Positions 14,700 to 41,668 of a stretch of 51,910 nucleotides of DNA are shown one piece after another. The stretch is from assembly GCA_022837245.1 (NCBI GenBank), contig JALHHX010000004.1:1-51910 (forward strand), written 5' to 3'. Each line of letters begins with the position of its first letter. Position 1 is the stretch's first letter. The notes beneath the pieces are model-generated. The model saw nothing but the letters and a program-made list of their open reading frames with translations. It did no database searches and was not told where the DNA came from. A program made the translations under genes and the position numbers. Origin of the DNA: Lentisphaerota bacterium. Its GTDB lineage: Bacteria; Verrucomicrobiota; Kiritimatiellia; RFP12; UBA3636.

Positions 14700-14773
14700 T
14701 GGAGCGGGTGATGGGAGTCGAACCCACGTGGCCAGCTTGGAAGGCTGGAGCTTTACCGTTAAGCAACACCCGC
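14700..14773 (-). tRNA. tRNA-Gly (anticodon UCC), CCA-encoded
   Basis: Reverse complement GCGGGTG-TT-GCTT-AACGGTA-AAGC-T-CCAGC-CTTCCAA-GCTGG-CCAC-GTGGG-TTCGACT-CCCAT-CACCCGC-T-CCA folds as a 74-nt cloverleaf. The anticodon loop is CU-UCC-AA. Confidence 0.9.
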
Positions 14774-15061
14774 GCTCTCAAAAACACAACGGAATTTATA
14801 CTATTCGCCCCGCAAAAGCAACAAAAAACGGTAAAGGAATGTGAAAGTCAGCGACTGGGGGGAGTGACAGGATGTCGGAATATTTGAATGGAATAATGTG
14901 ATGACGGGTGAAGGTAGTTTCGGGGACATGCGGCTAGAAAGCCATCTGGTAACATCGAACTTGAACCCATTGTTCCCAGACCTTGGCGGCGAATCCTTGC
15001 CGCAGAGCGACACGGAGGCTTCCGCGCATCCGGAAGCCCCCGCCGTTCGCTGAAAGAGCGT

Positions 15062-15316
15062 CTATTCCACTATGAGGATGACCACCGGATCGACGAGTGT
15101 CATGTCGGGGCCGTCAAAGGTGACGTCGAGGCGGACATGGCATGCAAGGTCCGTGAAGGGGAACACTAGCTTGTCCGTCGGCGTGATTGTGACTGGCACC
15201 GCGTTTGTCGAAATGCCCGTGATTGTGTAGCGGAATGGCACTGCGATGGTAACATTCGTGCCGCCTCCGAATGGAACCTCGAAGCGCGTGATCTGCGGCT
15301 TGTTGGGCAACGGCAC
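15062..15316 (-). CDS. Small hypothetical protein, or the 3' remnant of a longer gene
   Basis: 84-codon ORF with a GTG start. The same frame stays open and protein-like for about 40 more codons upstream (GTRVGVSAIERKPDTLIIERAFS) without any start codon. No recognisable motifs. Confidence 0.25.
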   Translation of the reverse strand: MPLPNKPQITRFEVPFGGGTNVTIAVPFRYTITGISTNAVPVTITPTDKLVFPFTDLACHVRLDVTFDGPDMTLVDPVVILIVE

Positions 15317-15483
15317 GCTGAAGGCGCGTTCGATGATCAGCGTGTCGGGCTTCCTTTCGATGGCCGAGACGCCGACGCGCGTTCCCGAGAATTCGCGGCG
15401 CGCGCCACACTTCCGCTTGCCCCGCGAAAAATTCCACCCTCCCCGAGCACTACCCGATTACGAGATTTCTGGGGATATTCTCT

Positions 15484-15580
15484 CCCCATTTTTCCAAGCC
15501 AAAGCTCAGTTTTCTGGGTCAAATGCTCTTCAATTTTGATGGGTAAATTACGCCTACGCCAAAACTCCGGAAAAATGGGG
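15484..15580. repeat. 12-bp perfect inverted repeat CCCCATTTTTCC / GGAAAAATGGGG separated by 73 nt
   Basis: Arms at 15484-15495 and 15569-15580, read directly. The right arm is part of the dispersed motif GGAAAA(A)TGGGG(A/G)AAGYCC, which also occurs at 153-173 and 42198-42213. Confidence 0.6.
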
Positions 15581-15692
15581 GAAGTCCAATATCACGTTTC
15601 CACTTGCACGAAATGGCGTCAAACTGCATGTTGGCTTTCTTTTGCATTTTTCTTTTTCTCCGCGGCTGCGAAGTTATGAACAGAGAATGTGG

Positions 15693-17150
15693 TTACGGCG
15701 TAACAATCTCTGCTTCAACGCCGAAACTTGCCGCGACCTTGGCGATGGTTGCCGCATTATGACCAATCCCAAGGGCGAAATGATGAGTCGGCCCAGCGAG
15801 GCTCCACCGGCGCAGGAAGGTGCGCATGTCAGGCGAAAATCTACCGTGTGTGTTAGTGTTGCCAGTAGGAGGGATCGGCCCAGCAGTGGATTCACCTTCC
15901 GCAATCACGAACTTGAATTTGCCGTCATGCATGCTACTAATGCTCAGCAGCGTTATCGGGCCTGTTTTGATGTTGAATTCCACTCCGGCACCGGATCCGG
16001 GTTTTCCATGGTATTTGCGAAGACTTCGCAGAACGGGTTTGCCGTCCGCGATGTTGAGGTGGTGCGGTCCATCGTGGCCGACGAGGACAGAGTCGCGTTC
16101 AAAGTCCATGGGATGGAATTCCGCGAAGCTACCGCCGATTTCGAGCCGGTCCATTATTAGCATCGCGATGCAAGTCTTTATGTCAAACTCGCCGCACATA
16201 GGGAAGCCTGCCGCAGTGAGAAGCGAGTTGCCCACGATAAAGTTTGTGACAAGCTTTCGCATTTCAGATCCAGGCTGCGCCTCGTAGTAGTAGGCAAATC
16301 CGGAAAGGTTTTTCGAATCGATGAATCGCTCAAGGGCGACGGCGGCGCGTGCGGCAGTGAGCAGGTCCGCATCTGTGAGTTTTGTCGTTAGTGGATCTGA
16401 TGCCGGTTCCGGCGTGTCGAAGAATGTTAGAATGCGCTCCTTCATAGCCTTGACGGCGCTGTCGTCAGCGTCGAGCTTTACGAAGTGCGTCATGATTTCG
16501 TCGGGCTCGCATTGCACGGCGTGGCATCCGAACGTGCCGGTAAGCGCAGTGACGTCGGTCTGCATGTCCAGCATTGATTCAAGCACGTGCCCCATGTGTC
16601 CGATGCGTGCGCGCCGCAGGTCGCGGCGCACATGCGCGATGCGGCACCATTCTGCGAGCGCGGCATCGGCGGCCTGGTCGTTTTCAAGAGTGCCCACGAT
16701 CACATCAGCCACAGGCTTTCCGACCCGGATCGCGACGCCAGTAAACTCGGGCACGCTGCAGTAGTCGTCATTGCAGAGCTGCATATACGTCGTGCCTTCA
16801 GCATATTTCATTGCCTTGAGCGGCTGGAGCGCAACGAGAATCACGGGGCAGTTCATCTCGCGCGCAATGGCGGCGAACGTCGAGCTGGTGGCATACGTCA
16901 CCATATCGAATAGAAGTATGTCGAGATCGGCCGCTTTAATTTTTGGGAGTGCCTCGTAGGCTTTGGCGGCGTTGTCAACCATGCCGAAATCAAAAACCGT
17001 CACCTGGTTCTGCTTCAGCTTGTCAATCAGGACGCCCGTCTTGCGGTTCATCTCGTCGAGAAGTCCTGGGAACTGTCCCCAGTAGGTGTCGAGTCCTACC
17101 GAGACCACCCCAACGTTCGCATCCAGCTTTTTAATCCGTTCAATTTTCAT
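15693..17150 (-). CDS. L-arabinose isomerase family protein (AraA-like sugar isomerase)
   Basis: Collinear with E. coli AraA over the catalytic half: GEFDIKTC (AraA GEGDWKTA), SFAEFH (SFMEDY), VGHDGPH (LGSHMLE), GPTHHFALG (GGAHHTVFS). The ATG at 17150 (MKIERIKK) overlaps the upstream stop by 11 nt. Confidence 0.8.
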   Translation of the reverse strand: MKIERIKKLDANVGVVSVGLDTYWGQFPGLLDEMNRKTGVLIDKLKQNQVTVFDFGMVDNAAKAYEALPKIKAADLDILLFDMVTYATSSTFAAIAREMNCPVILVALQPLKAMKYAEGTTYMQLCNDDYCSVPEFTGVAIRVGKPVADVIVGTLENDQAADAALAEWCRIAHVRRDLRRARIGHMGHVLESMLDMQTDVTALTGTFGCHAVQCEPDEIMTHFVKLDADDSAVKAMKERILTFFDTPEPASDPLTTKLTDADLLTAARAAVALERFIDSKNLSGFAYYYEAQPGSEMRKLVTNFIVGNSLLTAAGFPMCGEFDIKTCIAMLIMDRLEIGGSFAEFHPMDFERDSVLVGHDGPHHLNIADGKPVLRSLRKYHGKPGSGAGVEFNIKTGPITLLSISSMHDGKFKFVIAEGESTAGPIPPTGNTNTHGRFSPDMRTFLRRWSLAGPTHHFALGIGHNAATIAKVAASFGVEAEIVTP

Positions 17151-18177
17151 TTTGCACCGTGTCCCATTCCTCAAGCACGGCGAGGACCGTTTCGGGATTG
17201 CATCCGAGACCGATTTCAAACTGCACGAAACATCCGCCGCTACGGTCGTAGAAGTGCGACGCCACTTCGCGAACAGCCTTCCTCCCAACCTCTGGGTCTT
17301 TTGCCGGCAGCACGTGCTGCCGGTCGATCTCGCCCCAAAATGCAATCTTTCCCTTGGCGCGCTTCTCGAGGTCCGCCATGTCCATGCAGAAGAGCTGGGA
17401 GTTGATGGCATCTACCCCTATTTCGATTAGATCGTCGAATATCTCGGATATGAAGCCGTCAGAGTGCATGAACGTGAACTTGCCCGCCGCGTGCGCCATG
17501 TCGCAATAGTCCTTGTACATTGGCTTGAATATCTCCCGCCATATCGCGGGAGGGATCAGCAACTGTCGCTGCGACCCCCAGTCGTCCATGAACCCGATGG
17601 CGTCGACGTCCGTGGAGCACCAGAATTCGCACTCCGCCATGTAGAACTCGTGCATCCGCTTCAGAATCCCAAGCATGTCGTGATCGTAGTCCATCACGTC
17701 CATCATCGCACTTTCAGTTCCGCGCAGAAACTGGTACTGCTCCCACGGACGCGGATTCATGTTGGCGCGGATGAACTTGTCGCTCGCCGCATAATCGCGG
17801 TTCACGGAGTCGCGCGCCTTATCAATGTTTTCCGGAAGTGTTTCCCAAGGTGGCTGCACGACCGCTTTCCAGTCCGAGAGATTCGTCAGGATTGGGTGTT
17901 TTACCTCGCCGATCGAATCGTTTGACAGGTTTTCGAAAACGCAACCCCATGTATCCGTGTACCGCCCCCTGGCGTGCGGCTTGCCCCGCTCTCTTTTGGA
18001 CGGCCTGTAGACGTTTCGAACCCAGCCCATGTCGCCTGGCCAGCGGAACGCTATTTCCGCCAGCGTTTCCGGGATGTGGTTGCTCGCCCACGGCAGCGCC
18101 CACAAGTCGCGGGGCATTCTCTCAGGGTAATCGAAAGTCAGGGACTTCCTAACTATTTCCCGTGATGTCCGAGCCAT
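17140..18177 (-). CDS. Uroporphyrinogen-decarboxylase (URO-D) / MtaA-like TIM-barrel family protein
   Basis: Typical family layout with the C-terminal FMHSDGFISEIFDDLIEIGVDAINSQ block. SD-like AAGGAA lies 6 nt upstream of the ATG. Confidence 0.7.
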   Translation of the reverse strand: MARTSREIVRKSLTFDYPERMPRDLWALPWASNHIPETLAEIAFRWPGDMGWVRNVYRPSKRERGKPHARGRYTDTWGCVFENLSNDSIGEVKHPILTNLSDWKAVVQPPWETLPENIDKARDSVNRDYAASDKFIRANMNPRPWEQYQFLRGTESAMMDVMDYDHDMLGILKRMHEFYMAECEFWCSTDVDAIGFMDDWGSQRQLLIPPAIWREIFKPMYKDYCDMAHAAGKFTFMHSDGFISEIFDDLIEIGVDAINSQLFCMDMADLEKRAKGKIAFWGEIDRQHVLPAKDPEVGRKAVREVASHFYDRSGGCFVQFEIGLGCNPETVLAVLEEWDTVQNEN

Positions 18178-18209
18178 GTTATTTCCTTAATTTCCCGATG
18201 CGAACGGTT

Positions 18210-19772
18210 TTACGCGCCGGGCATGAGTACAAGCTTGACGCCGCCGTAAGAGTGGCGCCCTTCAAGCGAAACGTCGAGCATCATCTCGAGTCGTGCTCCG
18301 TCGAAATTCGACGCGTCAACCACGAAACTCGCCTCAGCCTTAGCACCCCACACTAGGTTGAGCGGGAGCGTGACGCAGCGCTCTGATAACACAGCCACGC
18401 TGGGCGGCGTGTACAGCGAGAGCCGCGCCCAGAGCTGCAGGTTGGTCGAGCCTGAATTGATCACCGTAACCTTGATTTCGCGTGGCTCGCATTTCTTGAA
18501 CCCGATCGATCCGCCGAAGTCGACCATAACGTCGAACAGCGGGAACGAATGACGTACTATGTACGGCGACATGGCGCAGACTTCGGCCATCGAAGGGAGC
18601 TTGTCCTTGCCGCCGCCATTGATCCCGGGGAGGTATTCTTTGTAGCGGTCGACGCTGAATAGTCCTTGCCCCTCCTCGCACTTGATGGTGTAGCCCCCCT
18701 CGGCGAACAAGTCGCAGCGGCCGACACCAAGGAAGTTTGGCGTATTCCTGAGCACGCGATCCGTCAGCTGGGCCACGGTGCGCGGAACCCACACTTTGCC
18801 GTTGGTCTTGTCTATGCAAATCGTCGCAATGACGTCGTTGAGCGGGGCCTTCCATTTTTCCGGAATCCCGGACGCCCCAGATATGATGCCCATCGTCGCG
18901 CCGAGCGTGGCGCAGGAGCAGTCCGTGTCCTCGCCAAAAGCGTTTGCGCAGCAGATTGATTTACCGAAATCGCCTTCACCATAAAGCCAGCCCGCGATCG
19001 CATACGCACAGTTCTCTGGCGCGTCGAAGCCCGGTTCTCCCACCTTGAAATCGGGATCGGAGCGGTCTATCTGCGACAACTTGCAGCCCTGCACGCCAAA
19101 CGTACCAGGCGCAGTGTTGTGGATACGCCTGCGCGCCTCTGCCAGCGGGACTCCTTCTTCCTTGCATCGGATGGCCTCGTTGATGGCGCGCGCAAGCGCG
19201 GATCCTTCCGGGATGTATGAAAGTCCGATGTCGATAAGCGTGCGCAAATCGCTCTCAACGAACGCCGCGCTCTGCAATGCCGAGAAAAACACCTCGCCGT
19301 ACACGCCCTCGCCAGAGTGATCCACGCTGCCGTCCTCGAAAGCATAGCGCGCGGCTATCTCCGGATTCCCAGGCGCGAGGCATGCCCAGATCTCGGACCT
19401 AATGAAGCAGCCGCAGGAGTTGCGGTACACGTTGTCGTGATGACCCGATATAGGCGGCATAAGACCGGCGCGCATGTTGCTTTTTCCGGTGCCGTACTCC
19501 ACCCAGTTGGGGATCACGAAGCTGAGCCAATATTCTCCGAGTATTGCGGAGTTGACTTGCCTGCCGTATTTTTCCACGGCGGCAAGCCATACAATCTGCA
19601 GGTCGAGGTCGTCGTTTGGAGGCGGACCCTTTGACAGATCCTGAACGTAGAAATCCACTTCATTTATCTTACGCTGCCCCTCAAACGGCGCACCCAGCAC
19701 TCCCCCGATGTTTTTACCAGTCCAGCATCCGGCAACCTTGTCCTTGTATGTCTCGAAATCAAGTGTTTTCAT
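18210..19772 (-). CDS. ADP-ribosylglycohydrolase (ARH/DraG) family domain fused to a roughly 190-aa C-terminal beta-rich domain
   Basis: N-terminal GGVLGAPFEG and metal-site motif GEDTDCSCATLGATMG (family pattern G-x-D-T-D). The ATG at 19772 is preferred. The longer ORF starts with GTG at 19784. Confidence 0.8.
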   Translation of the reverse strand: MKTLDFETYKDKVAGCWTGKNIGGVLGAPFEGQRKINEVDFYVQDLSKGPPPNDDLDLQIVWLAAVEKYGRQVNSAILGEYWLSFVIPNWVEYGTGKSNMRAGLMPPISGHHDNVYRNSCGCFIRSEIWACLAPGNPEIAARYAFEDGSVDHSGEGVYGEVFFSALQSAAFVESDLRTLIDIGLSYIPEGSALARAINEAIRCKEEGVPLAEARRRIHNTAPGTFGVQGCKLSQIDRSDPDFKVGEPGFDAPENCAYAIAGWLYGEGDFGKSICCANAFGEDTDCSCATLGATMGIISGASGIPEKWKAPLNDVIATICIDKTNGKVWVPRTVAQLTDRVLRNTPNFLGVGRCDLFAEGGYTIKCEEGQGLFSVDRYKEYLPGINGGGKDKLPSMAEVCAMSPYIVRHSFPLFDVMVDFGGSIGFKKCEPREIKVTVINSGSTNLQLWARLSLYTPPSVAVLSERCVTLPLNLVWGAKAEASFVVDASNFDGARLEMMLDVSLEGRHSYGGVKLVLMPGA

Positions 19773-19831
19773 TTTGTCTCGCACTTTTTTGTCGTTATCT
19801 CTGAATCAAAAATCAATGTCCGTAGCTGAGT

Positions 19832-20770
19832 CTATTCGTATATGCTGCGAGCGATTTTACGCATCACTTTGGCGTCCTCCGGCTTGACGTACGGCGACTG
19901 GTACCCATCCTCCGGCACCGGCTCACCAAACAGGAACTGGTACCATACGCACCCGAGCAGATAGTGCCCGGCGGAGCTGGCGTGGATCGCATCCTGCACA
20001 AGAACGTCCCCTTTTTTGCGATCTTTAATCCAATAGCCGTTCCTGTGCAGCGCAAACTTCTCATTCACTGGCAATGCCGGGTGAACTGCTTTTTCCCAGT
20101 CAAAATCGGGATCTGGCTGGAACTTGCCCCAATCTGGCGAGTGCCTAGCCGCCTCGAACGCATCGCCAGATCTAATCTGGCGCAATCCGTACTTCTCTGC
20201 GAGGCCGTCGTACGCTTTCTTCAACTGGGCATACATGTCGTCCGCCGTGAAAACTCCGTTCGTGAACGCCCTGTGGTCGTCGCGCCACGCCCATGTCTGG
20301 TGCACCACAATCTCCGCGCCGGGCGCGTTTTGATGAATGTATTCCACCAGCCTGCCAGCATACGGTTCGAACGTCTCCGGTTTAAAGCTCTTCGGGCTTG
20401 CCTGCTGAATCGTCACGACGTCCCATTTTTCCTTCCGCAGAAGTTCCTTAAGGCTCCTTTTCCCATAAGGCGTCGCCACGTGTGCGGGGCCGTTCGTCTC
20501 GAACGCTTCCAAACCGCGGACATGATCCTCCAGCGAACCGCCTAGTATTATAGCGTTTTCGTACACCAGGGTGTGCCCTTCGGTCTTCACTATGAACGGC
20601 AGTTGGGTCAGCGCATCGCGAGAGAAGCTGTTGCCTATCGCCATCACCTTAACCGTCTTCGGAGAGGCGTTCGTCTTTATAACCTGCGGCTCGTCTTCGC
20701 CGGCCATCACCGTTGCAGCGGTCATCGCTGCCAGCGCCGCCGACATTATAATCGTTTTTTTAAATTTCAT
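19832..20770 (-). CDS. Exported DUF4886 / SGNH-like hydrolase-fold protein
   Basis: Signal peptide MKFKKTIIMSAALAAMTAATVMAG, then VMAIGNSFSRDA, characteristic of DUF4886. Confidence 0.7.
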   Translation of the reverse strand: MKFKKTIIMSAALAAMTAATVMAGEDEPQVIKTNASPKTVKVMAIGNSFSRDALTQLPFIVKTEGHTLVYENAIILGGSLEDHVRGLEAFETNGPAHVATPYGKRSLKELLRKEKWDVVTIQQASPKSFKPETFEPYAGRLVEYIHQNAPGAEIVVHQTWAWRDDHRAFTNGVFTADDMYAQLKKAYDGLAEKYGLRQIRSGDAFEAARHSPDWGKFQPDPDFDWEKAVHPALPVNEKFALHRNGYWIKDRKKGDVLVQDAIHASSAGHYLLGCVWYQFLFGEPVPEDGYQSPYVKPEDAKVMRKIARSIYE

Positions 20771-20784
20771 ACCTTACAAGGATT

Positions 20785-22056
20785 TTACCCAACTTTATAA
20801 TTGATCTGCTTCCGCACTTCGGCGATTGGAACGTCCTCCGGCTTTTCGCCTCGCTGAGCGGCCAATGCCGCGATTGCCCCCGCCGCTTGGCCAGTTGCCA
20901 TGCAAGTCGCCTGAACACGCAACGCGCTGTGCGCGAGCCTATCGCTCGAAATCACCTTGCCCGCCATCAGCAGCCCCTCGCATCCCTCCGCAACAAGCGC
21001 CCTGCGTGGCACGGTGGGGACTACGCCAGGTTCCAGTTGCACGCAATTGAGGCCGCGCCCGCTCATCTCATGAAAGTCTATCGGATAAAACGAATTGCAT
21101 ACCGCATCGCGCCATTTACGTCCCGAAGCGTAGTCTCGTGCAGTGATCTCCACAAGCCCAACGACGGTTGTCGATTCGCGCACGCCCGTCTCCTGCGCAA
21201 CCCATTCCGCATGCAGGCCGCCAAGACCCGGGCGATCCCTGAGCCAGTTCACTATGCGGCGCACGGACGCTCGCGCCTCGACTTCCAGACGCGTCCGCCC
21301 TTCGCTAGTGCGGACCTCCGAGTCTACAGGAATATGGTTCGCATTGTTCCCGCGGTTGGAGAGCAGACCTGACACTCGGGGGTTGTTGCCACCCCACCCG
21401 GCGTCAGTCGCTTTCAACACGTCTGTATCCACGGCTTGCGCGAACTCGGCGTCAAGCGCCTTCAGATCCAGGCTTGTGATGTCGTATCCCGCAAGGCGGA
21501 AGCACAGCGTCCCCGGCTGGCATTCTCCGTACATACGGAGTTTGGCCCCGCACACCTCCGCCACATTTGCATCGCCCGTGCAGTCGATAAGCATTTTGGC
21601 GGACGTTTTGCGCATTCCCTCCTTGCAGCACAATGTCACGCGCCAGCCATCCTTCGAGCGCTTCGCGTCGCCAGTCATAGTATGCAGCAGCAAATCGGCG
21701 CCGGAGTTAAGCACCTCTTCGTCGCATATGGCGGCGAAAACCGGAATCGGCACTCTCACCTGGTACCAGGAGTGCCGCATACCGGGCGTGGTGAAATCCT
21801 GCAACGTTCCGCCGCTCTCCGAGACGGTGCGCGTCACGAGACCCCATCCTATGCCGTCGATCACCTGCTTGCCCCAAGCATGGAAAATCCCGGGGAAGTT
21901 GATCCCAACATTAGTGAGCGTGCCGCCAAGCCTCGCCTCGCGCTCCACCAGCAGGGTCGACGCCCCCGTCCGCGCCGACTGTATGGCCGCGCAAACTCCG
22001 GCCACCCCGCCGCCGAACACGATGACATCGTATTTACTTTTCACGGCAAAGCCCAA
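20785..22056 (-). CDS. FAD-dependent oxidoreductase (FAD_oxidored/GIDA-like fold)
   Basis: Dinucleotide-binding motif YDVIVFGGGVAGVCAAIQSARTGASTLLVERE..LGG. TTG start at 22056, with an alternative GTG at 22044. Confidence 0.85.
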   Translation of the reverse strand: MGFAVKSKYDVIVFGGGVAGVCAAIQSARTGASTLLVEREARLGGTLTNVGINFPGIFHAWGKQVIDGIGWGLVTRTVSESGGTLQDFTTPGMRHSWYQVRVPIPVFAAICDEEVLNSGADLLLHTMTGDAKRSKDGWRVTLCCKEGMRKTSAKMLIDCTGDANVAEVCGAKLRMYGECQPGTLCFRLAGYDITSLDLKALDAEFAQAVDTDVLKATDAGWGGNNPRVSGLLSNRGNNANHIPVDSEVRTSEGRTRLEVEARASVRRIVNWLRDRPGLGGLHAEWVAQETGVRESTTVVGLVEITARDYASGRKWRDAVCNSFYPIDFHEMSGRGLNCVQLEPGVVPTVPRRALVAEGCEGLLMAGKVISSDRLAHSALRVQATCMATGQAAGAIAALAAQRGEKPEDVPIAEVRKQINYKVG

Positions 22057-22065
22057 CGCCTGATC

Positions 22066-23214
22066 CTAGAAGATCTCGAGATAATCCGCCGGCGGCAGTT
22101 CAGGGAACTTAGTGGCTGGACCTTCCTGATACCAAAACGCCACGGACGCAATGTCGTCCTGAAGCGGCAGGTAGCGCCCGTCCTTGCGCCATCCGAGCGC
22201 CTGGATCGTCACCTTGAGGTCCTTCTCGAAGCGTATCGGGTCGGTCACGTGCCAGCGGTACATGCTGAAGCGCTGGTTCGCCTGATAAACACCATCTGGA
22301 CGCACGATGTGCGGCACGCCCGTGTATGGACCGGTGAATTCCTGATACTGGCCCGTCGCCTTGTTTTCAAAATTGTACGACCCGCAGAAATAGTCCTCTG
22401 TGCCGGTGCCGCATATCGTTGGGAACCCGGTCGAACCGGCAATCTCCTTACCACCGGACAATTTCGGATCAGTGTCGCCATCCATGTAGAACTTGATCTC
22501 GCCCTCGCCCCACCATCCGTTGTTGTTGAGCTGCCACGCCATATACGTCCCAACGTAATGACCTTTGCCTTTGACGCCGTCGAGAATCGTGTAGACATCC
22601 CGTGCCTTGAGAGGATTCACTCGGCGAAACTGCGCATGGAAATACGCTGCGTTATCCGGCACATTGTTGAGAGCGTAGTCGATTTGGTAGAAAATCGTCT
22701 TGGTCTCAGAGGCGCTTACATTCTCAAGCGTTATTTTGATGCGCTTGCGGAACGGCATGGGCCAATAGCAGTTGAACGCGTTGCCGGGGTTTACGCAGAC
22801 GGGAATGGATTTGATCGGCGCAAACACCTTGAAGCTAGTGAATGCAGATGCGAAGAAATCGCCAATCGGGCATTCCACCGAAGGGTTCTCCGCGCCGTCG
22901 TAGTAAATCCGCATTATGGTTGTTCTATTGTCGCCTGTCGGAGTCATCCATATATGCTGTATGCATCCGGGGCCTTCAATATCGGCCATCAAAAATGTTT
23001 CGCCCGGTTTAACACCGTCGCACGGATGCACCTTCCAACCCTGCCCCAGAGCTCGCGCCGGGCCGACTGGCTTTCCGTTCTCGTCCACTGGAGGCATAGC
23101 ATGCGCGCCGCCGGACTTCTCTCCCGTCCTGTTTTCTCCGCATATCGAACGCGTCTTGGCATCGGACATTAGCGCCATAGATGACAAATCGCACATCAAA
23201 CCGTCAAAGCTCAT
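22066..23214 (-). CDS. DUF2961 / glycoside hydrolase family 172 protein
   Basis: HIWMTP...RIYYDGAENPSVECPIGDFFASAF is the DUF2961 hallmark. No signal peptide. SD AAGGAA lies 8 nt upstream of the ATG. Confidence 0.8.
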   Translation of the reverse strand: MSFDGLMCDLSSMALMSDAKTRSICGENRTGEKSGGAHAMPPVDENGKPVGPARALGQGWKVHPCDGVKPGETFLMADIEGPGCIQHIWMTPTGDNRTTIMRIYYDGAENPSVECPIGDFFASAFTSFKVFAPIKSIPVCVNPGNAFNCYWPMPFRKRIKITLENVSASETKTIFYQIDYALNNVPDNAAYFHAQFRRVNPLKARDVYTILDGVKGKGHYVGTYMAWQLNNNGWWGEGEIKFYMDGDTDPKLSGGKEIAGSTGFPTICGTGTEDYFCGSYNFENKATGQYQEFTGPYTGVPHIVRPDGVYQANQRFSMYRWHVTDPIRFEKDLKVTIQALGWRKDGRYLPLQDDIASVAFWYQEGPATKFPELPPADYLEIF

Positions 23215-23267
23215 ACAATTATTCCTTATTTAATCTTTGGTTCCCGCAATCCTGCTATTCGTCCTCT

Positions 23268-23296
23268 ATTGTACCGTTTTGCCTCAAAGCTTTCAA
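23268..23296 (-). promoter_or_regulatory. Sigma70-like promoter for the GH172 operon: TTGAAA-N17-TACAAT
   Basis: On the minus strand, the -35 TTGAAA is at 23291-23296 and the -10 TACAAT at 23268-23273, with an exact 17-nt spacer. It sits about 50 nt upstream of the ATG at 23214. Confidence 0.4.
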
Positions 23297-23827
23297 CCAT
23301 GCGTTTTGGAATTGGAACGATGGAATATTGGATGGGTTGATTGTTGGAATTATGGAACACTGCGCGCTCCTCGAGGCTAGGAAAGGCGGGATGTGGGTAT
23401 CACGCGAAAACGCGACGACGCGAAGCTCTTGCCACGTGGGGTATGGATCCGCAGATTGACACGGATTTTCTCTTGCTACGCGGGTTTTGAGGGACTCTGC
23501 AGACGTGCTCTTGCAACGGTGTGGTGGACACCTTCGGTCAAGGGCCAGCCCGCAGGAAGTGAGTACAAGCGACGTGGATGAAGACGAAATTGACGAGGCA
23601 GGCATCTTAGCTGGCAATATGCGGAAGTGAAGCCTTTCAGCCATTGTTCCAGCATTCCATTCCTCCACCGCTCTCCAATGCGGGGCTACTGCGCTCGCGG
23701 CGAGGAAAGGCGGCGCAGGCGAACCGTCATTCGCGCAGTAAGGAAAAATCTGCGCATGTCTGTGGGAATCTGCGGATAAATACCACGTAGCAGAGAATGG
23801 TCGTCTGCCGTTTCCATCCCGTCATAA

Positions 23828-23856
23828 TTGCATCGCATCCGCTAAACGGCTATAAT
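23828..23856 (+). promoter_or_regulatory. Sigma70-like promoter TTGCAT-N17-TATAAT placed for a leaderless transcript of the SGNH esterase gene
   Basis: -35 at 23828-23833, -10 at 23851-23856, and the ATG at 23864 lies only 7 nt after the -10. No SD sequence is present. Confidence 0.4.
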
Positions 23857-23863
23857 CAAAGCC

Positions 23864-24580
23864 ATGAAAACAAAAACAAGCATATTACTCTTTTCTGGTC
23901 TCGTCTTTTCCGCACTGGCATTCCTCTCTGCTGGGTGCGCATGCAAATCAACATGGAAAGGCGACCCTCCTCCGCAACCCATTAAAATCGCCTGCATCGG
24001 CGATAGTCTCACGTTCGGCATGAACATCGAGAACCGCGCGAGTTCCAACTATCCCGCGCATCTCTCGCGCCTCGCCGGTCCCGGTTTCGAGGTGGAGGGC
24101 TTCGCCGTATCCGGAATGATGGCGCTTAAAAACGTACCCGGTCGCAGCTTCTGGGATCTCCCCGAATTCACTAACGCCCTCGCCTGGAATCCCGAAATCG
24201 TCGTCATCTGCTTCGGCGCCAACGATTGCTGGCCCGACATCTGGAAAGATCACAAAGACGAATTCAAGCCAGATTTGGCGGCAATGGCCAACAAATTCAA
24301 GGACCTCCCCTCCAAACCCGCCGTATGGCTCGCATCCCCTACGCCGATGGGCATACCCGCCGACCGCTTCCCCGGGAACGTGCAGCTCAAGATACTAAGC
24401 GACGAAATTGTACCTGCCGTGCGCGATGTGGCAAAGGAATCCGGAAGCGGCTACATAGACTTCTTTAACGAACTTAGCGGCAACCCCGCATGGTTTCAGA
24501 TCGACAAGGTGCATCCCACGGCCGCCGGCTCCGCCAAAATGGCCGAAGTCGTCTGGACTGCCATCAACCCAGGGAATTAA
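23864..24580 (+). CDS. SGNH/GDSL-family esterase lipoprotein (carbohydrate acetylesterase-like)
   Basis: Lipoprotein signal ...LAFLSAGC. Block I IACIGDSLTFG. Block V DKVHPTAAG. Confidence 0.85.
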   Translation: MKTKTSILLFSGLVFSALAFLSAGCACKSTWKGDPPPQPIKIACIGDSLTFGMNIENRASSNYPAHLSRLAGPGFEVEGFAVSGMMALKNVPGRSFWDLPEFTNALAWNPEIVVICFGANDCWPDIWKDHKDEFKPDLAAMANKFKDLPSKPAVWLASPTPMGIPADRFPGNVQLKILSDEIVPAVRDVAKESGSGYIDFFNELSGNPAWFQIDKVHPTAAGSAKMAEVVWTAINPGN

Positions 24581-31187: not shown

Positions 31188-34100
31188 TTACCTGAATATT
31201 ATCATCGTCTCGTTCGGGGGTGGGAGGTGTTCATATACACCGATCTCCACCGAGGAGCCGATGATCCGATCCATGCCGAGCGGATCATCGGCTCCGGCCA
31301 TCCAGTCTAGGACTTCCCCCGCGTCGATGCACGGCGAATGGTTGGCCAGACGGAAGTCGGACGAACCCACATTGTAGAACATCGGGGCTGCGCTGATAGA
31401 GTTTGTCGTCGAGTATTTGTCGTTACCTATGTCTATGGCCAAATTAGCGGACGGGTTGCCGTGGAGGTTGTTGTAGCGGTCAACAAGTACATCCATCCAA
31501 TCGTTGTCAGAGTTTATACCATATTGCGCGTTGTTAGCGGAAATCGTGTTGCGCACGGTCATGCCGGAACGCGGCGACAAGACAATGCCGCTTTTGTTTG
31601 CGTAAACAACGCAGTTCTCCACGATGCCGCCGCCCGTGTCAACCCCGCTCTGGATTCCGTTGCCCAGATTGCGATAAATTTCAGATTCGCGAATGGTGAA
31701 ATCCGAACCGCGCCTATAAAACCACTCATATCCTGCGGGAGCCGGTTGGTTGTGATCGTAGTTGAAACCAATTCCGCTGTTTTCGCGTATGATGCTGCGA
31801 AAGACCTGGTCTAGTCCGCACCCGGAGAAGTTAAGACCGGCCCCCGTGTTATTGGCGACAACGCAACGGTCGAATGAGTTTGCTGGACTAAAGTTCTCGC
31901 CATGGATTCCATTAACGCCATTCGTCAAGACGGAGACATCGTTGAAAACGCCGCCGCCAGACTTGCTAAGCCAAACCCCATGGCCACCGTTGCCGGCGAT
32001 AATGGTGTTTTCCATACCATTGGCTGGCGAGTTGGTAGAGGCAACGCCGTTGCGGCTGTTCCCGATGATTGTCAGATTCTTAAACTGATTTCCGTACGAG
32101 CCAGACAATGCCACGCCGTCCACGGCGTTGCGTATATCGAAGCCTTCGAGAGTTACCGACTCTACCGCCTGGAGCTTGACGGCATAGGGAAGCGATCCGC
32201 CGCCGTCTATTATGGCGGTTCCGCCGTCGGAGCGCACCGCGACCCCCGACTTTGTGAATACGACTTCCTGCTCATAGGTCCCCGGCTGGACAAGAATGGT
32301 GTCGCCTCGCTCCGCAACGTCGGCGGCTCGCTGAATTGTAAGAAAAGCCCCGCCAGCCGCGTTTACCAGCCCGGAGCTGGAGTCGTCGCCGTCTGTTCTA
32401 ACATAATACGTTTCCTGTGAGGGCAAGTCCAATGGCTCCCCGGCCGGGTACACGCCGATGTGTCGGCCGTCGTTCCCGGCGTTAAGGCAAGCTGAAGTTT
32501 CGTACAGACGGAAATCGCCTGCGAATGGATCGACGAAAAGCGGATTGCCGGTGACAGAGTGTCCCCCGATGTTGTCGCCCGCATGCGACCTGTACAGATA
32601 TTCGCCCGCGTTTCCGAAAATCAGGTTGTAGTCGGCGGTAAGCGGTGTGCTCGACTCCCAGTCGTTAGCCTTCGCGAAGGCCGGTCCGAGATTGCCGGCG
32701 ATGATTGTGTTGCGCACGCTGACCGACGCGCGAGGATCTTGAAACACTCCGGCGTACCGGTTGCCGAATACTACGCCGTTCTCAACCAGCCAGCCTCCGT
32801 TGTCAACGCCAAGATGAATGCCGAAGCCGGAGTTGGAATGCACACGGCACTCGCGTATAACACCGTAGTCACCATCGCCGTTACCATCGGATTTCAGTCC
32901 ATCCCGCAAGTTGCTGTGCAGGTTGCATCCAATAAGAGAAAACCACGCACTGCCGTTGATAAGGTGCACGCCATCCTCAATAGCATTGCGAATTTCGAAA
33001 CCCTCGATAGAAATATAGTCCGCTTTGTCGAGCCTGAATCCAGAGGAACGCACGCCCCCGCCATCAACAACGGGGGTCTCTCCTGATTTTGCGACGATGC
33101 GGTTCGCCTTTCCCGCAGTCCCCGAATGGGCGGAATTCAGCGACACCATTTCCGGATACGTGCCGCCGGCGACAATAACCATGTTGCTTGCTGTAGCATA
33201 GAAGACCGGGTCGTCAACACCTTCTTGTATGGTCCGGTAGGCAGTTTCCCAAGATATCCCGTCAAATACTGGACCCGGCGATGCGGTATCGACGTAAACA
33301 ATGCCACCATCGACCGCAGTCGGTGCAGGACGGTTTGTAATCGTGACAGTCGCAACCCCCGGAGGTGTAATCTGGTAGCTCCCCTCGTCGAGCGTCAGAA
33401 CGACAGTCGTGTCACTCTGAGAACTCCAGTCGTTTATAGCGGCAACTGTGACTGTGGCCGACGAAACGCCTGACGGCAATGTTACCCCAACACCCAAAGT
33501 CCCCGCATAGTTCACACCCGGTACGGCCGTACCACCAACTGAATACGGAACAAACATTGAAAAATTAGCCGCAGTTTCGGGACGAGTGATTGTGAAAGAG
33601 CCATAAACCGGCCCTATTTCAGAGGCCTGAGTCGTCGCTTCCGCTGAAATCTCTCCGGTTATTAGCACTGCCGTTTCTTCCGTCCAGACCGTCTCAACCT
33701 CGTTGCTGGCGGCGAAACGGAAGAAATAGGCGGTGTTTGCCGAGAGCCCGGTCAGCTCGTATGTAAAGTCCCCGGGGTTTTGCGGAGCGGCCAAAACAGC
33801 TGAATTAGCCCATGATGAAGCATTTGTTCCGCCATCGGCCGTCCCCCAATATATGGAAACCGCCGTTGATGCAGTACCGGTAGATGTGAGCAAACCTTTG
33901 ATCCATGCGGACGATAGCGTGACATTTGTCGCAGGTAGCGTTTCAATATTGAGCGGGGGAATTGCCGGGATGCTTTCAACACCTACAAATTCTATCTCAC
34001 GATAGCCGACGTGACCGTTCTCCTGAGCACCGAAATTGATACGCAAGGAGTGGACGTTCTGGGCAATCGGACCACCGACCGCAGTGTAACGGACAAGAGC

Positions 34101-34556
34101 TGTAGACGTTCCGCCTTCGTAGTTTACGGCCGTGCCGGGTATGACGATAAAGGTTGTGGGATCGTTTGCCGTGGAACAGGCAAGACTAGTCACTGTGATG
34201 TTATCACGTCCGGAATCCGCCCAACCAGAGTAGAGATTGACTCCAGTGATATCGTAGCCCAGTTCCGCATTCCCCAGAGCATAAGTCAGCACGGCGTTGT
34301 CGCCGATCGTATAGGTGTTCGCTTTGTCGTGGATAATTGAGCCATCGGTCAATTTTGTCACAGGGCCAGTGCTTTCTGCCCCTGCGGCGCCGTTCGCCAC
34401 CGCGCTGGGCTCCATGCCGGCAATCAAGTTGCCTTCCGCCGACGTGAACGAGTACGTGTTGGTCGTTGAAATGGATATAGTGCCGACCTCTGCCTTTGCA
34501 CAGATTACGGCGACAAACGAAATCATGAATCCAAGTATTTGAACTGTTTTTTTCAT
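31188..34556 (-). CDS. Secreted multidomain protein: jelly-roll (discoidin-like) domain, FN3-like domain, Calx-beta-like domain, then two right-handed parallel beta-helix modules
   Basis: Signal peptide MKKTVQILGFMISFVAVICAKA (ATG at 34556). Beta-helix module openers YVDTASPG...YRTIQEGV and TYYVRTDGDDSSSG...AFLTIQRAADVAERGDTILVQPGTYE. Repeated NxxxGxG rungs. C-terminus DFRLANHSPCIDAG...VEIGVYEHLPPPNETMIIFR. Confidence 0.85.
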   Translation of the reverse strand: MKKTVQILGFMISFVAVICAKAEVGTISISTTNTYSFTSAEGNLIAGMEPSAVANGAAGAESTGPVTKLTDGSIIHDKANTYTIGDNAVLTYALGNAELGYDITGVNLYSGWADSGRDNITVTSLACSTANDPTTFIVIPGTAVNYEGGTSTALVRYTAVGGPIAQNVHSLRINFGAQENGHVGYREIEFVGVESIPAIPPLNIETLPATNVTLSSAWIKGLLTSTGTASTAVSIYWGTADGGTNASSWANSAVLAAPQNPGDFTYELTGLSANTAYFFRFAASNEVETVWTEETAVLITGEISAEATTQASEIGPVYGSFTITRPETAANFSMFVPYSVGGTAVPGVNYAGTLGVGVTLPSGVSSATVTVAAINDWSSQSDTTVVLTLDEGSYQITPPGVATVTITNRPAPTAVDGGIVYVDTASPGPVFDGISWETAYRTIQEGVDDPVFYATASNMVIVAGGTYPEMVSLNSAHSGTAGKANRIVAKSGETPVVDGGGVRSSGFRLDKADYISIEGFEIRNAIEDGVHLINGSAWFSLIGCNLHSNLRDGLKSDGNGDGDYGVIRECRVHSNSGFGIHLGVDNGGWLVENGVVFGNRYAGVFQDPRASVSVRNTIIAGNLGPAFAKANDWESSTPLTADYNLIFGNAGEYLYRSHAGDNIGGHSVTGNPLFVDPFAGDFRLYETSACLNAGNDGRHIGVYPAGEPLDLPSQETYYVRTDGDDSSSGLVNAAGGAFLTIQRAADVAERGDTILVQPGTYEQEVVFTKSGVAVRSDGGTAIIDGGGSLPYAVKLQAVESVTLEGFDIRNAVDGVALSGSYGNQFKNLTIIGNSRNGVASTNSPANGMENTIIAGNGGHGVWLSKSGGGVFNDVSVLTNGVNGIHGENFSPANSFDRCVVANNTGAGLNFSGCGLDQVFRSIIRENSGIGFNYDHNQPAPAGYEWFYRRGSDFTIRESEIYRNLGNGIQSGVDTGGGIVENCVVYANKSGIVLSPRSGMTVRNTISANNAQYGINSDNDWMDVLVDRYNNLHGNPSANLAIDIGNDKYSTTNSISAAPMFYNVGSSDFRLANHSPCIDAGEVLDWMAGADDPLGMDRIIGSSVEIGVYEHLPPPNETMIIFR

Positions 34557-34653
34557 GTAACACCCCATCTGTTTTGTTGTTGCGTGGAATCCAATAATGC
34601 TCCGCATGATACTGTTGGTAGGTGGAAAAGAGATAGCTTAACTTTTGAGAAAA

Positions 34654-37287: not shown

Positions 37288-40200
37288 TTACCGCACAATC
37301 ATCATCGACGGTGCCGTGAACACTTCGTAGGCTCCGATGTCGACAATGCCGCCCGCGATGCGCGGGTTGCCGTCCAGATCGAAGGCCGTGGCCTCGCCCT
37401 TGGCCATCCAGAGCTGGTTCGCGCCCGCGTCCACGCACGGCGAGGCCGCGAGAATGTGGAAGTTCCCGGTGGCGCGGCCGCGGTAGAGCGGATCGACCGA
37501 GATCGAGTTGACCGGTGTGATCGCGTTGCCCGAGAAAGCCGTGCCGTTGCCGAACACGTCGCAGTTGACCACGCTCAGTCCGTACTGCGTCTCCCGGTAG
37601 ATGCCGCTGCCCGTGTTGAAGGTGACCGCCGTGTTGCGGATCAACGTGGCGTCGCCGCCGAAATAGTTGACGTGGATTCCGCCGCCGTTGCCGTCGAAAA
37701 CGGAGTTCTCGAAAGTCCAGTTGTGTGAGGCGGAGTCCCGAGCGGTGGCGAAGCCGTAGCCCGTGTTCTGGTAGACGAGGCTGTTGCGGACGACGCCCCA
37801 GACCGCGCCGCCGACAGAGCCGCCGCCGTAGCGGCCGCTGTAGATTCCAGCTCCCGTGTTCCCGAAAACCCGGCAGCGGTCGAAGAACGTCTCTCCAGAG
37901 AGATAGAGCAAGGCGCCGTTGACCTTGTTGCCCGAAATTGACGTGTTGACGAACTCGGCCTCGTGCGAGCGGTTGAGGAAGGCGCCTGCGAGCTTGCTGC
38001 CGGTCAGCGCGCAGTTTTCGAAGCGGCAGCCCTGCGCCTCGTTCAACTCGACGCCGTTGCCGTTGGCCGCCGTGAACGCGAAGCCCTTGAAGGCCACGCG
38101 ATTGGCGCCTTGCATCGAGAGCGCGGGGCCGGAGGCGTTTGTCACCGCCACCGCGCCGTCGGCCACGAAGCGCACCCACTGGTCGCCGGAGCCGCCGGTG
38201 GCGATCGTCGCGCCCGCTGCGTACGTCCCCGCCTGCACGCGCACGGTGTCGCCCGGCGTCACGGCGTCCGCCGCCTTCTGCAGCGTCAGGAAGGCGCCTG
38301 CAGGCGTGTTGTCGAGGCCGGTGTTCGCGTCGCTCCCGTCGAGTCGCACGTAATACGTCTGGATCGGCGGGAGCGCGACGCGCGGCCCGCTCGGGCTTGG
38401 CCCCAGGTCTTCGCCGTTGACGCCGTAGCCGGCCGCCGGCGCGCCTTCGTAGAGCCGGAAGTCGTTGGCCCACGGCGCGACGAAGCCCGGATCGGCCCAG
38501 AGGTTGTTGCCGCCGTCGATGAAGTGCTTGACGCCCGGCACGAAGTGGTTGCGCGCGGCGTAGAAGCACGTGTAGCTCACCCGCACGCCGGTGCCGTAGT
38601 CGGCATCGGGATACAGGTCGTACTGGTGGTTCGCCGCGAGAATGCTGTTCGTCAGCACCATGCCGCTGTTCCAGGCGCCCTTGTCGATGCCGCTGCCGTA
38701 GTTGCCGTACGCCAGACATGCGTCGATGATCCAGTTGTCGGAATGCGAGTCGCGCTGCAGCGCGACGCCCGAGCCCGTGTTGCGGAGGAACCGCGAACGG
38801 CGGAGGACCACGTTGTCCGAGCCGGCGGCGCTGTTGTTCGGTCCGGCGTAGATGCCGTTCTGCTTGTTCCACCCGAAGGTCGAGTCGTGGACGGTCGTGT
38901 AATTGGCGGCGTAGAGGTAGAGGCCGTGCGAGGTGTTGTTGGTCGCCAGGCAGTGGGCCACCACGTTGTTGGGCGAGCTGAGCAGCTGGATGCCGTACGT
39001 TCCGCTGCTGGCCGCCGTCAGATTCGTCAGGACGCAGTTGCGGGAGGCGCTGAGGCGCACGCCATCGGATCCGGCGCCGCCGGTCACGGCGAAGCCGTCC
39101 AGCACGATCCCGGCGGAGGCGTCGAGCAGGAAGGCGTGCCCGCCGCCCGTCACCTGCACCGCGCCGTCGGCCACGAACGTCGCCTGAAGGCTGGAGGGGG
39201 CGACGAGGGAGATGACGACGCTCTCGTTGTACGTTCCCGGCTGCACCCGGACCGTGCCGTTGGCGCCGACGGTCGAGGCCGCCTTCTGGATCGTCAGGAA
39301 CGCGCCGCCCGGCGTGTTCGCGAGCCCCGTGTTCGAATCGCTCCCGTCGGTGCGCACGTAGTAGGTCGCGGCGCCCGGCAGGGGCGCCCCGGCCCCATCG
39401 GGCCACACGCCCATGTCGATGCCCGCGAGGCCCGTGTCAATGGAAGGGGATCCGACGAACAAGTGGAAGTCGGTGGCGCCGGGGTTGACCAGCAGCGGAT
39501 CGGCGGAGATCGAGCCGGTTCCCGCCGTGAACCCGGAATAGTTGGCAAACGTGTTGCCGTAGACGTTGTTGTAGGTGCAGGCGATGCCGGCGCTGGTGCC
39601 GGCCGGCCCGACGCCGTTGCCCCGGTTGAAGCACACGATGCTGTTCCGGAGCACATGGCCCGAGCACCAGTGGCCCGCCGTCATGCCCGAGCCGCCGTTG
39701 TAGACGACCGCGCAGTTGTCAACCGTCCAGTTGCTGCAGTAGGAGTCGCCTTCCAAGCAGATGCCGTGGGCGTTGTTCGCGAAAATCGAGCACCGGTAGA
39801 GCGTCACGTAGTTGGCGAGACGGCGGCCGGCGGCGAGGTTCGCGCCGCCGTAGAGGCCGCTCCCCGTGTTCCGGGCGATGTGGCAGCGCTCGATGCGGGA
39901 CGCCCCCTTGCCATAGAAGTGAATGCCATGCGAACCGTTCCAGATCACCTGCGAGTCCACCATCGTCAAACCGGCGCTCTCGTTTACGAAGACGCCGTAC
40001 GACGTGTTCCGGGCGACGATGCAATTGGTGACGCGCGACTCGGACGCAAAGTCGAGCCTGATGCCGTGGGTGGCGTTCGAGAAGCAGAGGCCGTCGAGGA
40101 CGTTCCAGCTAGCGCGGTCGATCGTCGCCGCCGCCACGGTGCCGGTCACCGTCACCGCGCCGTCCGCGACGAAGCGCACGGGGCTGTCGGCCGTGCCGGA

Positions 40201-41502: not shown

Positions 41503-41668
41503 ATTAGTTCTCCGATGTTTTGTCATTTTATAGATTTCAAAGTCATATTTGAAACTCATTCAAGTCCTGATTTATAGACTGCAGGTTATACGACATGCGT
41601 TTGTCGGTTTTTGATTTCACGACATCAATGCCCCTTGGGTACACTCCTCCATCAATTGAACAGAGAGT

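Follow-up and report, generated by a model that had tools for sequence, protein, structure and literature searches.

A possible lineage-specific operon of carbohydrate-finishing enzymes around a candidate GH172 alpha-D-arabinofuranosidase in a Lentisphaerota bacterium

In a stretch of 51,910 nucleotides (nt) from a Lentisphaerota bacterium of the Kiritimatiellia (contig JALHHX010000004.1 of assembly GCA_022837245.1; the window hereafter), six consecutive co-oriented genes on the minus strand occupy positions 15693-23214 (Table 1). They encode a GH172 glycosidase, a flavoprotein, a DUF4886 protein, a protein with the ADP-ribosylhydrolase (ARH) fold, a protein with the fold of uroporphyrinogen decarboxylase (URO-D) and methyltransferase MtaA, and an isomerase of the AraA/FucI superfamily. 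The reading that we favour, and to which we give about an even chance, is that of a lineage-specific operon in which a bacterium of the Planctomycetota-Verrucomicrobiota-Chlamydiota (PVC) type has assembled six independently derived carbohydrate-finishing enzymes, rather than a conserved dedicated pathway, because the block is absent from every other organism examined. In more general terms, the cluster can be described as a probable carbohydrate-catabolic operon of unusual, non-conserved composition.

The arrangement of the genes suggests a transcription unit. In gene order from GH172, the intergenic gaps measure 9, 14, 59, 32 and -11 nt, the last being an overlap in which the isomerase start lies within the end of the URO-D-like gene. 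The third gap shrinks to 47 nt when the GTG start of the ARH gene is taken instead of the ATG at 19772 chosen by gene callers; the longest isomerase open reading frame (ORF) reaches up to 17411, while the MKIERIK start at 17150 agrees with the called product of 485 residues. An AAGGA ribosome-binding site precedes the GH172 ATG. Promoter-like sites are not enriched in the 9.4-kb region (4 found against 4.7 +/- 2.3 expected in shuffled sequence) and, since the motif count does not exceed chance, only the position of the sigma-70-like match ~54 nt upstream of the first ATG favours its role as the promoter. A terminator scan gave counts within the shuffle expectation and no convincing minus-strand terminator between the six genes. 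With co-orientation, short gaps and a single promoter-like site upstream, which are the usual marks of an operon, the six genes probably form one transcription unit in the source species, as judged from sequence. Their GC content (0.55-0.61) and GC at third codon positions (0.66-0.73) equal those of the housekeeping neighbours, and neither flanking direct repeats nor duplicated tRNA fragments were found at the boundaries; thus, recent horizontal acquisition is not indicated. Most of what the first-pass annotation had described in this region stands: the coordinates of the six co-oriented genes, with gaps of -11 to 47 nt (59 nt from the ATG start of ARH); the six domain identities, each recovered by Pfam; the lack of an adjacent transporter, kinase or regulator; and a signal peptide in DUF4886 only. 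Its near-consensus promoter TTGAAA-N17-TACAAT is present at the site given, although motifs of this kind are no more frequent than in shuffled sequence.

The six-gene block recurs only in contigs of the same species, at 97-100% identity: at least five assemblies contain contigs with an identical block, and variants at 97-99% share contigs of up to 9.1 kb. The survey used four of the cluster genes as anchors, each locus being taken with flanks of +/-10 kb. The URO-D-like anchor covered 80 loci from 80 species at 45-70% identity (Lentisphaerota, Verrucomicrobiota, Planctomycetota, Armatimonadota, KSB1 and others), the GH172 anchor 80 metagenome loci at 59-78% identity, the ARH anchor eight distinct contexts and the isomerase anchor four. 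With these four anchors, no surveyed locus of another organism keeps the six-gene block or, as a rule, any adjacent pair. Around the URO-D-like anchor the isomerase was never found, ARH once, GH172 twice and PF12831 once; around the GH172 anchor there was one adjacent ARH gene (L121) and one PF12831 gene (L097, 25% identical and 3 kb away), with neither isomerase nor DUF4886, the usual neighbours being SusC/SusD pairs, GlpK-like kinases and GH116-like genes. The nearest relatives, in Kiritimatiellia and Lentisphaeria, carry ARH (74-76% identity, the gene standing alone in Kiritimatiellia), the URO-D-like gene (70-72%) and the isomerase (79-83%), all without cluster partners. Iterated profile searches for distant family members among all six-frame ORFs of the surveyed loci added sporadic pairs only. 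The first-pass annotation had proposed that the six genes form one pathway and had named a lack of synteny in relatives beforehand as the refuting result; such a lack is what the four anchors show, and the cluster is weak as a pathway because it is private to one species.

Several points weigh against a lineage-specific assembly of independent enzymes. The survey covered the neighbourhoods of GH172, ARH, the URO-D-like gene and the isomerase, and judged co-occurrence within the 10-kb flanks. Moreover, each pair of cluster families does occur together at least once elsewhere (L036, L085, L094, L097, L102, L121), which hints at a loose functional guild. Finally, tight spacing, including the 11-nt overlap of the URO-D-like and isomerase genes, usually marks functionally coupled genes, so that the six may yet form a single-substrate pathway private to the lineage.

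The best-defined member of the cluster is the GH172 enzyme, which matches Pfam DUF2961 (PF11175), a double jelly-roll domain, over its full length at 8e-91 and carries the annotations GH172_1st, GH172_dom and GH172_2nd. It matches the characterised enzyme ExoMA1 (PDB 8IC8; E-value 8e-114 over residues 7-381), with 53% identity over 351 aligned residues. ExoMA1 is described as a retaining exo-alpha-D-arabinofuranosidase located inside the cell; it acts specifically on alpha-D-Araf, and its Asn253 blocks fructofuranosides (PMC10509167). Residues E237/E239, E273 and N281 of the window enzyme align with E223/E225, E245 and N253 of ExoMA1; the catalytic glutamates of the WWGEGE and GTGTEDYF motifs are therefore kept, and N281 occupies the Asn253 position, which is Gly in alphaFFase1. 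In the GH172 homologue Dg67, a covalent-inhibitor structure identified E264 as nucleophile and E242 as acid/base (bioRxiv 10.64898/2026.08.13.744632). Taken together, these residues make the window protein a candidate exo-alpha-D-arabinofuranosidase of the ExoMA1 type. With respect to ExoMA1, it also carries a 14-residue insertion at residues 250-263, PKLSGGKEIAGSTG, between the acid/base and nucleophile motifs, where it may bear on the rim of the active site or on contacts within an oligomer.

The isomerase belongs only distantly to its superfamily. Pfam recognizes Arabinose_Iso_C (2.3e-09) and Fucose_iso_C (1.4e-05), whereas with 56.7 bits the protein falls far below the cut-off of the NCBIfam AraA equivalog model (622). 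In the alignment with E. coli AraA (2AJT), residues 140-478 align at low identity, covering the C-terminal domain, and the GE(F/G)D, (A/M)E, H and HH motifs are kept, which we take to hold the metal-binding and catalytic Glu, Glu, His and His of the E. coli enzyme. Orthologues are 72-83% identical across Lentisphaerota and Kiritimatiellia. In Victivallis-type genomes the orthologue follows an AraC gene and a gene for a protein of ~810 residues, and elsewhere it stands alone. The two copies of this ~810-residue protein (L093:3505-5958 and L094:5565-7994) are 56% identical and have no match in Pfam, NCBIfam or a PDB sequence search.

The pairing of these two enzymes recalls the D-arabinan loci of Microbacterium arabinogalactanolyticum (a polysaccharide utilization locus, PUL; PMC10509167) and Dysgonomonas gadei (PUL42; PMC10115798), where an intracellular ExoMA1-type GH172 enzyme shares its gene cluster with a FucI/AraA-superfamily isomerase. 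The Microbacterium locus holds a putative isomerase and a kinase (PMC10509167), and a predicted fucose isomerase encoded in the GH172-containing locus is the most abundant carbohydrate-active protein of D. gadei grown on D-arabinan (PMC10115798). However, Pfam scans of the larger window ORFs revealed no GH183 (DUF4185) endo-arabinanase, no GH116 beta-D-arabinofuranosidase, no ATP-binding cassette (ABC) or SusC/SusD transporter and no kinase, and the window isomerase is a distant superfamily member rather than a canonical FucI. Since the endo-arabinanase, beta-arabinofuranosidase, transporter and kinase are absent, the cluster is not a D-arabinan locus. Conversely, the flavoprotein, DUF4886, ARH and URO-D-like proteins have no counterpart described for the D-arabinan loci in the text consulted.

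The ARH-fold protein matches Pfam ADP_ribosyl_GH (PF03747) at 4.1e-37, and an AlphaFold2 model with a mean predicted local distance difference test (pLDDT) score of 88 divides it into an ARH domain (residues ~1-350) and a C-terminal beta-sandwich (~400-520). Foldseek matched ARH3, DraG and TTHA proteins with probability 1.00, target-normalised template modelling (TM) scores of 0.6-0.73 and 12-16% identity, ARH3 (6hgz) giving a TM of 0.70 at 15% identity. The protein thus shares with ARH3 and DraG the all-helical fold (TM 0.70, target-normalised) and the two-metal acidic motifs, but differs from them in its low identity (12-16%) and in the extra beta-sandwich of ~120 residues. All 28 homologues compared share N53-D54-D55 and D282-T283-D284, in keeping with the family's two-metal motifs DD, near the N-terminus, and DxD(T/S), towards the end of the domain; we presume that they correspond to D77/D78 and D314/D316/T317 of ARH3. 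The NCBIfam Tri1 equivalog model scores only 18 bits (cut-off 490), and a PDB sequence search gave a single marginal match.

Across Kiritimatiellia, Treponema/Spirochaetia and Clostridia, homologues of this 520-residue type share 60-65% identity. Orthologues at 61-65% identity occur in a spirochaete, Oliverpabstia, Limiplasma and a metagenome-assembled genome (MAG; L181), where the operon also encodes a sugar-binding protein, two permeases and a regulator. No enzyme family other than ARH occurs in these four ABC-importer operons (CUT1-type), that of L181 having a second ARH paralogue adjacent. Thus, the genomic context of the family is that of sugar importers rather than of ADP-ribosyltransferases or nitrogenase, which speaks for free glycosides as substrates. 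ARH genes are also present in Bacteroidota ribose-utilisation (rus) loci, where they occur amid variable sets of glycosidases and esterases and where, as here, the enzyme content varies greatly between species (Glowacki et al., bioRxiv 10.1101/574913). Unlike the rus loci, the window lacks a ribokinase, a RusT-type transporter, a SusC/SusD pair and a RusR regulator; the likeness is one at the level of the ARH family as a whole. Because ARH is the sole enzyme family in the importer operons and occurs in ribose-scavenging loci, our best guess, by analogy, is that the enzyme would cleave an imported glycoside other than that of GH172, of ribofuranosyl type. The 520-residue family is a candidate for an undescribed glycosidase family.

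Two further loci show ARH genes in other company. A Verrucomicrobiota MAG (L036:1-21012) holds a co-oriented run of a PA14 protein, an EEP phosphatase-like protein, a PQQ-type propeller, an ARH protein (450 residues), an AXE1-like esterase and the URO-D-like orthologue (59% identity); the run continues with a protein of 979 residues, a URO-D paralogue, a second ARH protein (405 residues), a GH5-like gene and a glycyl-radical enzyme. This is the only other locus seen in which the ARH and URO-D families are clustered, with two genes each. In a metagenome contig (L121:670-4858), two GH172 genes (65% and 47%) immediately follow an ARH gene that is 45% identical to that of the window, with a BT_1020-like beta-propeller/sialidase-like protein with a carbohydrate-binding module further downstream; it is the sole ARH-GH172 adjacency found outside the source species.

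The URO-D-like protein matches Pfam URO-D (PF01208) only partially (8.7e-09, residues 152-316), scores 27.3 bits against the NCBIfam MtaA model (cut-off 400) and does not match HemE. Its AlphaFold2 model (pLDDT 93) has the URO-D TIM-barrel fold, and Foldseek gave TM scores of 0.63-0.71 at 10-14% identity to 4ay7, 1uro and others (0.68 to 4ay7 and UROD), while a PDB sequence search with the protein returned no match. The subfamily is 45-72% identical over more than ten phyla (alignment A1), with H238-S239-D240, Glu283, Asp285 and Glu321 invariant. In MtaA-type methyltransferases, the zinc site is His-x-Cys...Cys; as inferred from the profile alignment, the His-x-Cys position is taken by H238-S239-D240 in this subfamily. 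The invariant His-Ser-Asp, Glu283, Asp285 and Glu321 in place of His-x-Cys suggest a metal site and chemistry that differ from those of the MtaA type. A role as a corrinoid-dependent demethylase was considered and rejected, given that His-x-Cys is absent and no corrinoid protein occurs among the scanned window ORFs. Among the 80 loci, GH38-like genes encoding ~1000 residues recur beside the orthologues in 12 and a sodium-solute symporter in 8; other recurrent neighbours are GH2-like genes, AraC regulators and additional URO-D paralogues, of which a locus often holds several.

DUF4886 is identified by Pfam (1.1e-38) and by its similarity to PDB 4I8I, a hypothetical protein (1.3e-22), the family being without a characterised member (PMC9487903). 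It displays SGNH-type motifs, namely GNSF (Ser48) and DAIH (the DxxH of D260/H263), and its N-terminus MKFKKTIIMSAALAAMTAATVMA/GEDE resembles a signal peptide, as judged by eye. This is the sole such N-terminus and the sole exported product among the six, the other five being cytoplasmic. The flavoprotein matches Pfam FAD_oxidored (PF12831) over its full length at 6.5e-85 and has an N-terminal GxGxxG motif, while its PDB and NCBIfam matches cover only the first ~50 residues of the Rossmann (dinucleotide-binding) fold. The roles that the first-pass annotation assigned to the flavoprotein, the URO-D-like protein and DUF4886 were guesses.

How these proteins might operate together can be outlined as follows. 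Oligosaccharides or glycosides would be trimmed outside the cytoplasm, where the exported DUF4886 esterase and the GDSL lipoprotein encoded next to the cluster may remove acyl groups, and the products would be imported by transporters encoded elsewhere. In the cytoplasm, the retaining GH172 enzyme would free D-arabinose from alpha-D-arabinofuranosyl ends, with Glu273 as predicted nucleophile, Glu237 or Glu239 as acid/base and Asn281 excluding fructofuranosides. The metal-dependent AraA/FucI-type isomerase could convert a freed aldose into a ketose, a reaction for which D-arabinose to D-ribulose has precedent. The ARH-fold protein, as a two-metal glycosidase, would cleave a different imported glycoside, most plausibly of ribofuranosyl type, and the PF12831 flavoprotein and the URO-D-fold protein may act on sugar-derived substrates. 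By analogy with known loci, only the GH172 and isomerase steps would connect with precedent.

Other readings of the cluster have to be weighed against that of a lineage-specific assembly. A rather unlikely one has all six working one after another on a single unusual, decorated alpha-D-furanosidic glycan, in a pathway that is rare and private to the lineage: DUF4886 would deacylate it, GH172 and ARH would cleave it, the flavoprotein and the URO-D-like protein would carry out redox and decarboxylation or demethylation steps on a modified sugar, and the product would be isomerised. The ARH family is known for alpha-D-pentofuranosyl-type bonds. The same type of bond is known for GH172 (PMC10509167), and the very tight spacing with its translational overlap, the ARH-GH172 adjacency in L121, the alternation of ARH and URO-D family genes in L036 and a GH172 gene that adjoins URO-D paralogues in L102 all point in this direction. 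However, no relative keeps the block or a fixed pair, and the pairwise co-occurrence of 1-6% of loci is, by our estimate, about that expected by chance for abundant paralogous families within 20 kb. Furthermore, the ARH orthologues are the sole enzyme family in their importer operons, and no transporter, kinase or regulator is attached to the cluster. The opposite possibility, namely that rearrangement merely placed the genes side by side, with internal promoters and neither shared regulation nor functional relation, appears distinctly unlikely. It would agree with the absence of synteny elsewhere, with a promoter motif that does not exceed chance, with the room for internal starts in the gaps of 47-59 nt and 32 nt, and with one product being exported while five are cytoplasmic. 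Nevertheless, six consecutive co-oriented genes with gaps of at most 59 nt, one overlap and no convincing minus-strand terminators between them speak against it, and all six families have carbohydrate-related contexts elsewhere, so that the grouping is thematically non-random.

A cluster unrelated to glycans, in which ARH would remove ADP-ribose from its targets or break down NAD-derived ribosides, the URO-D-like protein would serve tetrapyrrole metabolism or methyl transfer, and the flavoprotein would have a redox housekeeping function, is very unlikely. The family names, the fold matches to ARH3, DraG, UROD and MtaA and the housekeeping flanks would favour it, but identity to the ARH3, DraG, UROD and MtaA enzymes is only 10-16%, and the orthologues live elsewhere, those of ARH in CUT1-type sugar importer operons and those of the URO-D-like protein beside GH38-like and GH2-like genes and symporters. 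In addition, the invariant His-Ser-Asp replaces the MtaA-type His-x-Cys, and neither a corrinoid protein nor an ADP-ribosyltransferase gene is present among the scanned window ORFs. A lineage-specific assembly of carbohydrate-finishing enzymes is, thus, the reading that we retain. Literature searches on the six-gene combination and on the GH172, ARH, DUF4886, PF12831 and URO-D families found no described pathway, as the first-pass annotation had supposed, so that its other refuting result, a match to a utilisation pathway already known, did not appear either. Its furanoside theme is supported by the 53% identity of GH172 to ExoMA1; its association of GH172 with the isomerase has a precedent in the D-arabinan loci, which contain a FucI-type or 'putative' isomerase (PMC10115798, PMC10509167); and its link between ARH and ribose agrees with the ARH genes of Bacteroidota ribose-utilisation loci (bioRxiv 10.1101/574913).

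Table 1. Genes and other features of the cluster region, with positions in the window.
Feature	Position	Strand	Details
GH172 (DUF2961) glycosidase	22066-23214	(-)	382 aa; no signal peptide; ATG start
PF12831 FAD-dependent oxidoreductase	20785-22056	(-)	423 aa; TTG start
DUF4886 SGNH-type esterase candidate	19832-20770	(-)	312 aa; Sec-type signal peptide
ARH-fold protein	18210-19784 (GTG) or 18210-19772 (ATG)	(-)	520 aa from ATG at 19772
URO-D/MtaA-fold protein	17140-18177	(-)	345 aa
AraA/FucI-superfamily aldose-ketose isomerase	15693-17150	(-)	485 aa
Sigma-70-like promoter match TTGAAA-N17-TACAAT	23268-23296	(-)	10/12 matches; ~54 nt upstream of GH172 ATG
GDSL/SGNH lipoprotein	23864-24580	(+)	Divergent; Pfam Lipase_GDSL_2 1.2e-20; lipobox LSAGC
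tRNA-Gly(TCC)	14700-14773	(-)	Downstream boundary of cluster region

The surroundings of the cluster are those of a housekeeping region, with genes for RodA, PBP2, RlmL, aconitase, RuvA, a PurM-like protein, DciA, tRNA-Gly, a tetratricopeptide repeat (TPR) protein, a lipid kinase and NAD kinase, along with a pair of ABC exporters and two large beta-helix proteins. In Pfam scans that covered all larger window ORFs, neither a sugar transporter nor a sugar kinase nor a regulator appeared, and an Rfam scan of the whole window found the tRNA-Gly alone, the sequence upstream of the cluster showing no riboswitch or leader. The divergent GDSL lipoprotein gene stands beside the cluster in L001, L004 and L005 too, which are contigs of the same species, and may be associated with it across the shared 650-nt intergenic region. 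This region (23215-23863) contains a direct repeat (23370-23389/23694-23713, 90%) and an inverted repeat (23440-23465/23759-23784, 81%), which could be regulatory or belong to a small repeated element. On the other side, the ~0.9 kb between the isomerase stop and tRNA-Gly (14774-15692) holds a single ORF of 84 residues on the minus strand (15062-15316), without a family match and called as a gene in L001. The right-handed beta-helix proteins (31188-34607, 1139 residues; 37288-41559, 1423 residues) have Beta_helix, NosD and DUF5123 domains and may be surface proteins of polysaccharide lyase-like or adhesin-like type; inside the second gene, at 38001-40000, GC content rises to 68.5% and long overlapping ORFs occur on both strands.

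The value of the cluster lies in its pointing to three subfamilies, namely the 520-residue ARH, the 345-residue URO-D-fold and the 485-residue AraA/FucI-like isomerase proteins. Each of them is 55-80% identical across distant phyla and occurs in carbohydrate-uptake contexts, none has a solved structure of detectable close sequence similarity, and the URO-D-fold and isomerase subfamilies are without a specific functional name. Moreover, the cluster would extend the ExoMA1-type D-arabinofuranosidases to an anaerobic PVC lineage, which raises the question of which D-arabinofuranosyl glycans such organisms meet. Going beyond the original observation, the 520-residue ARH family is a more promising lead than the cluster as a pathway. 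A broader proposal, which we regard as rather doubtful, is that these proteins are undescribed metal-dependent glycosidases acting on an imported alpha-D-ribofuranosyl-type glycoside, self-sufficient in the importer operons of Firmicutes and spirochaetes; here they would be joined with an alpha-D-arabinofuranosidase and an isomerase in a cytoplasmic operon for the use of alpha-D-pentofuranosides, while a modified sugar beyond the reach of both hydrolases would be handled by the flavoprotein and the URO-D-fold enzyme. As the sole enzyme family in several importer operons, the ARH proteins are the most tractable lead, since their substrate would be revealed by whatever ligand the cognate binding protein takes up.

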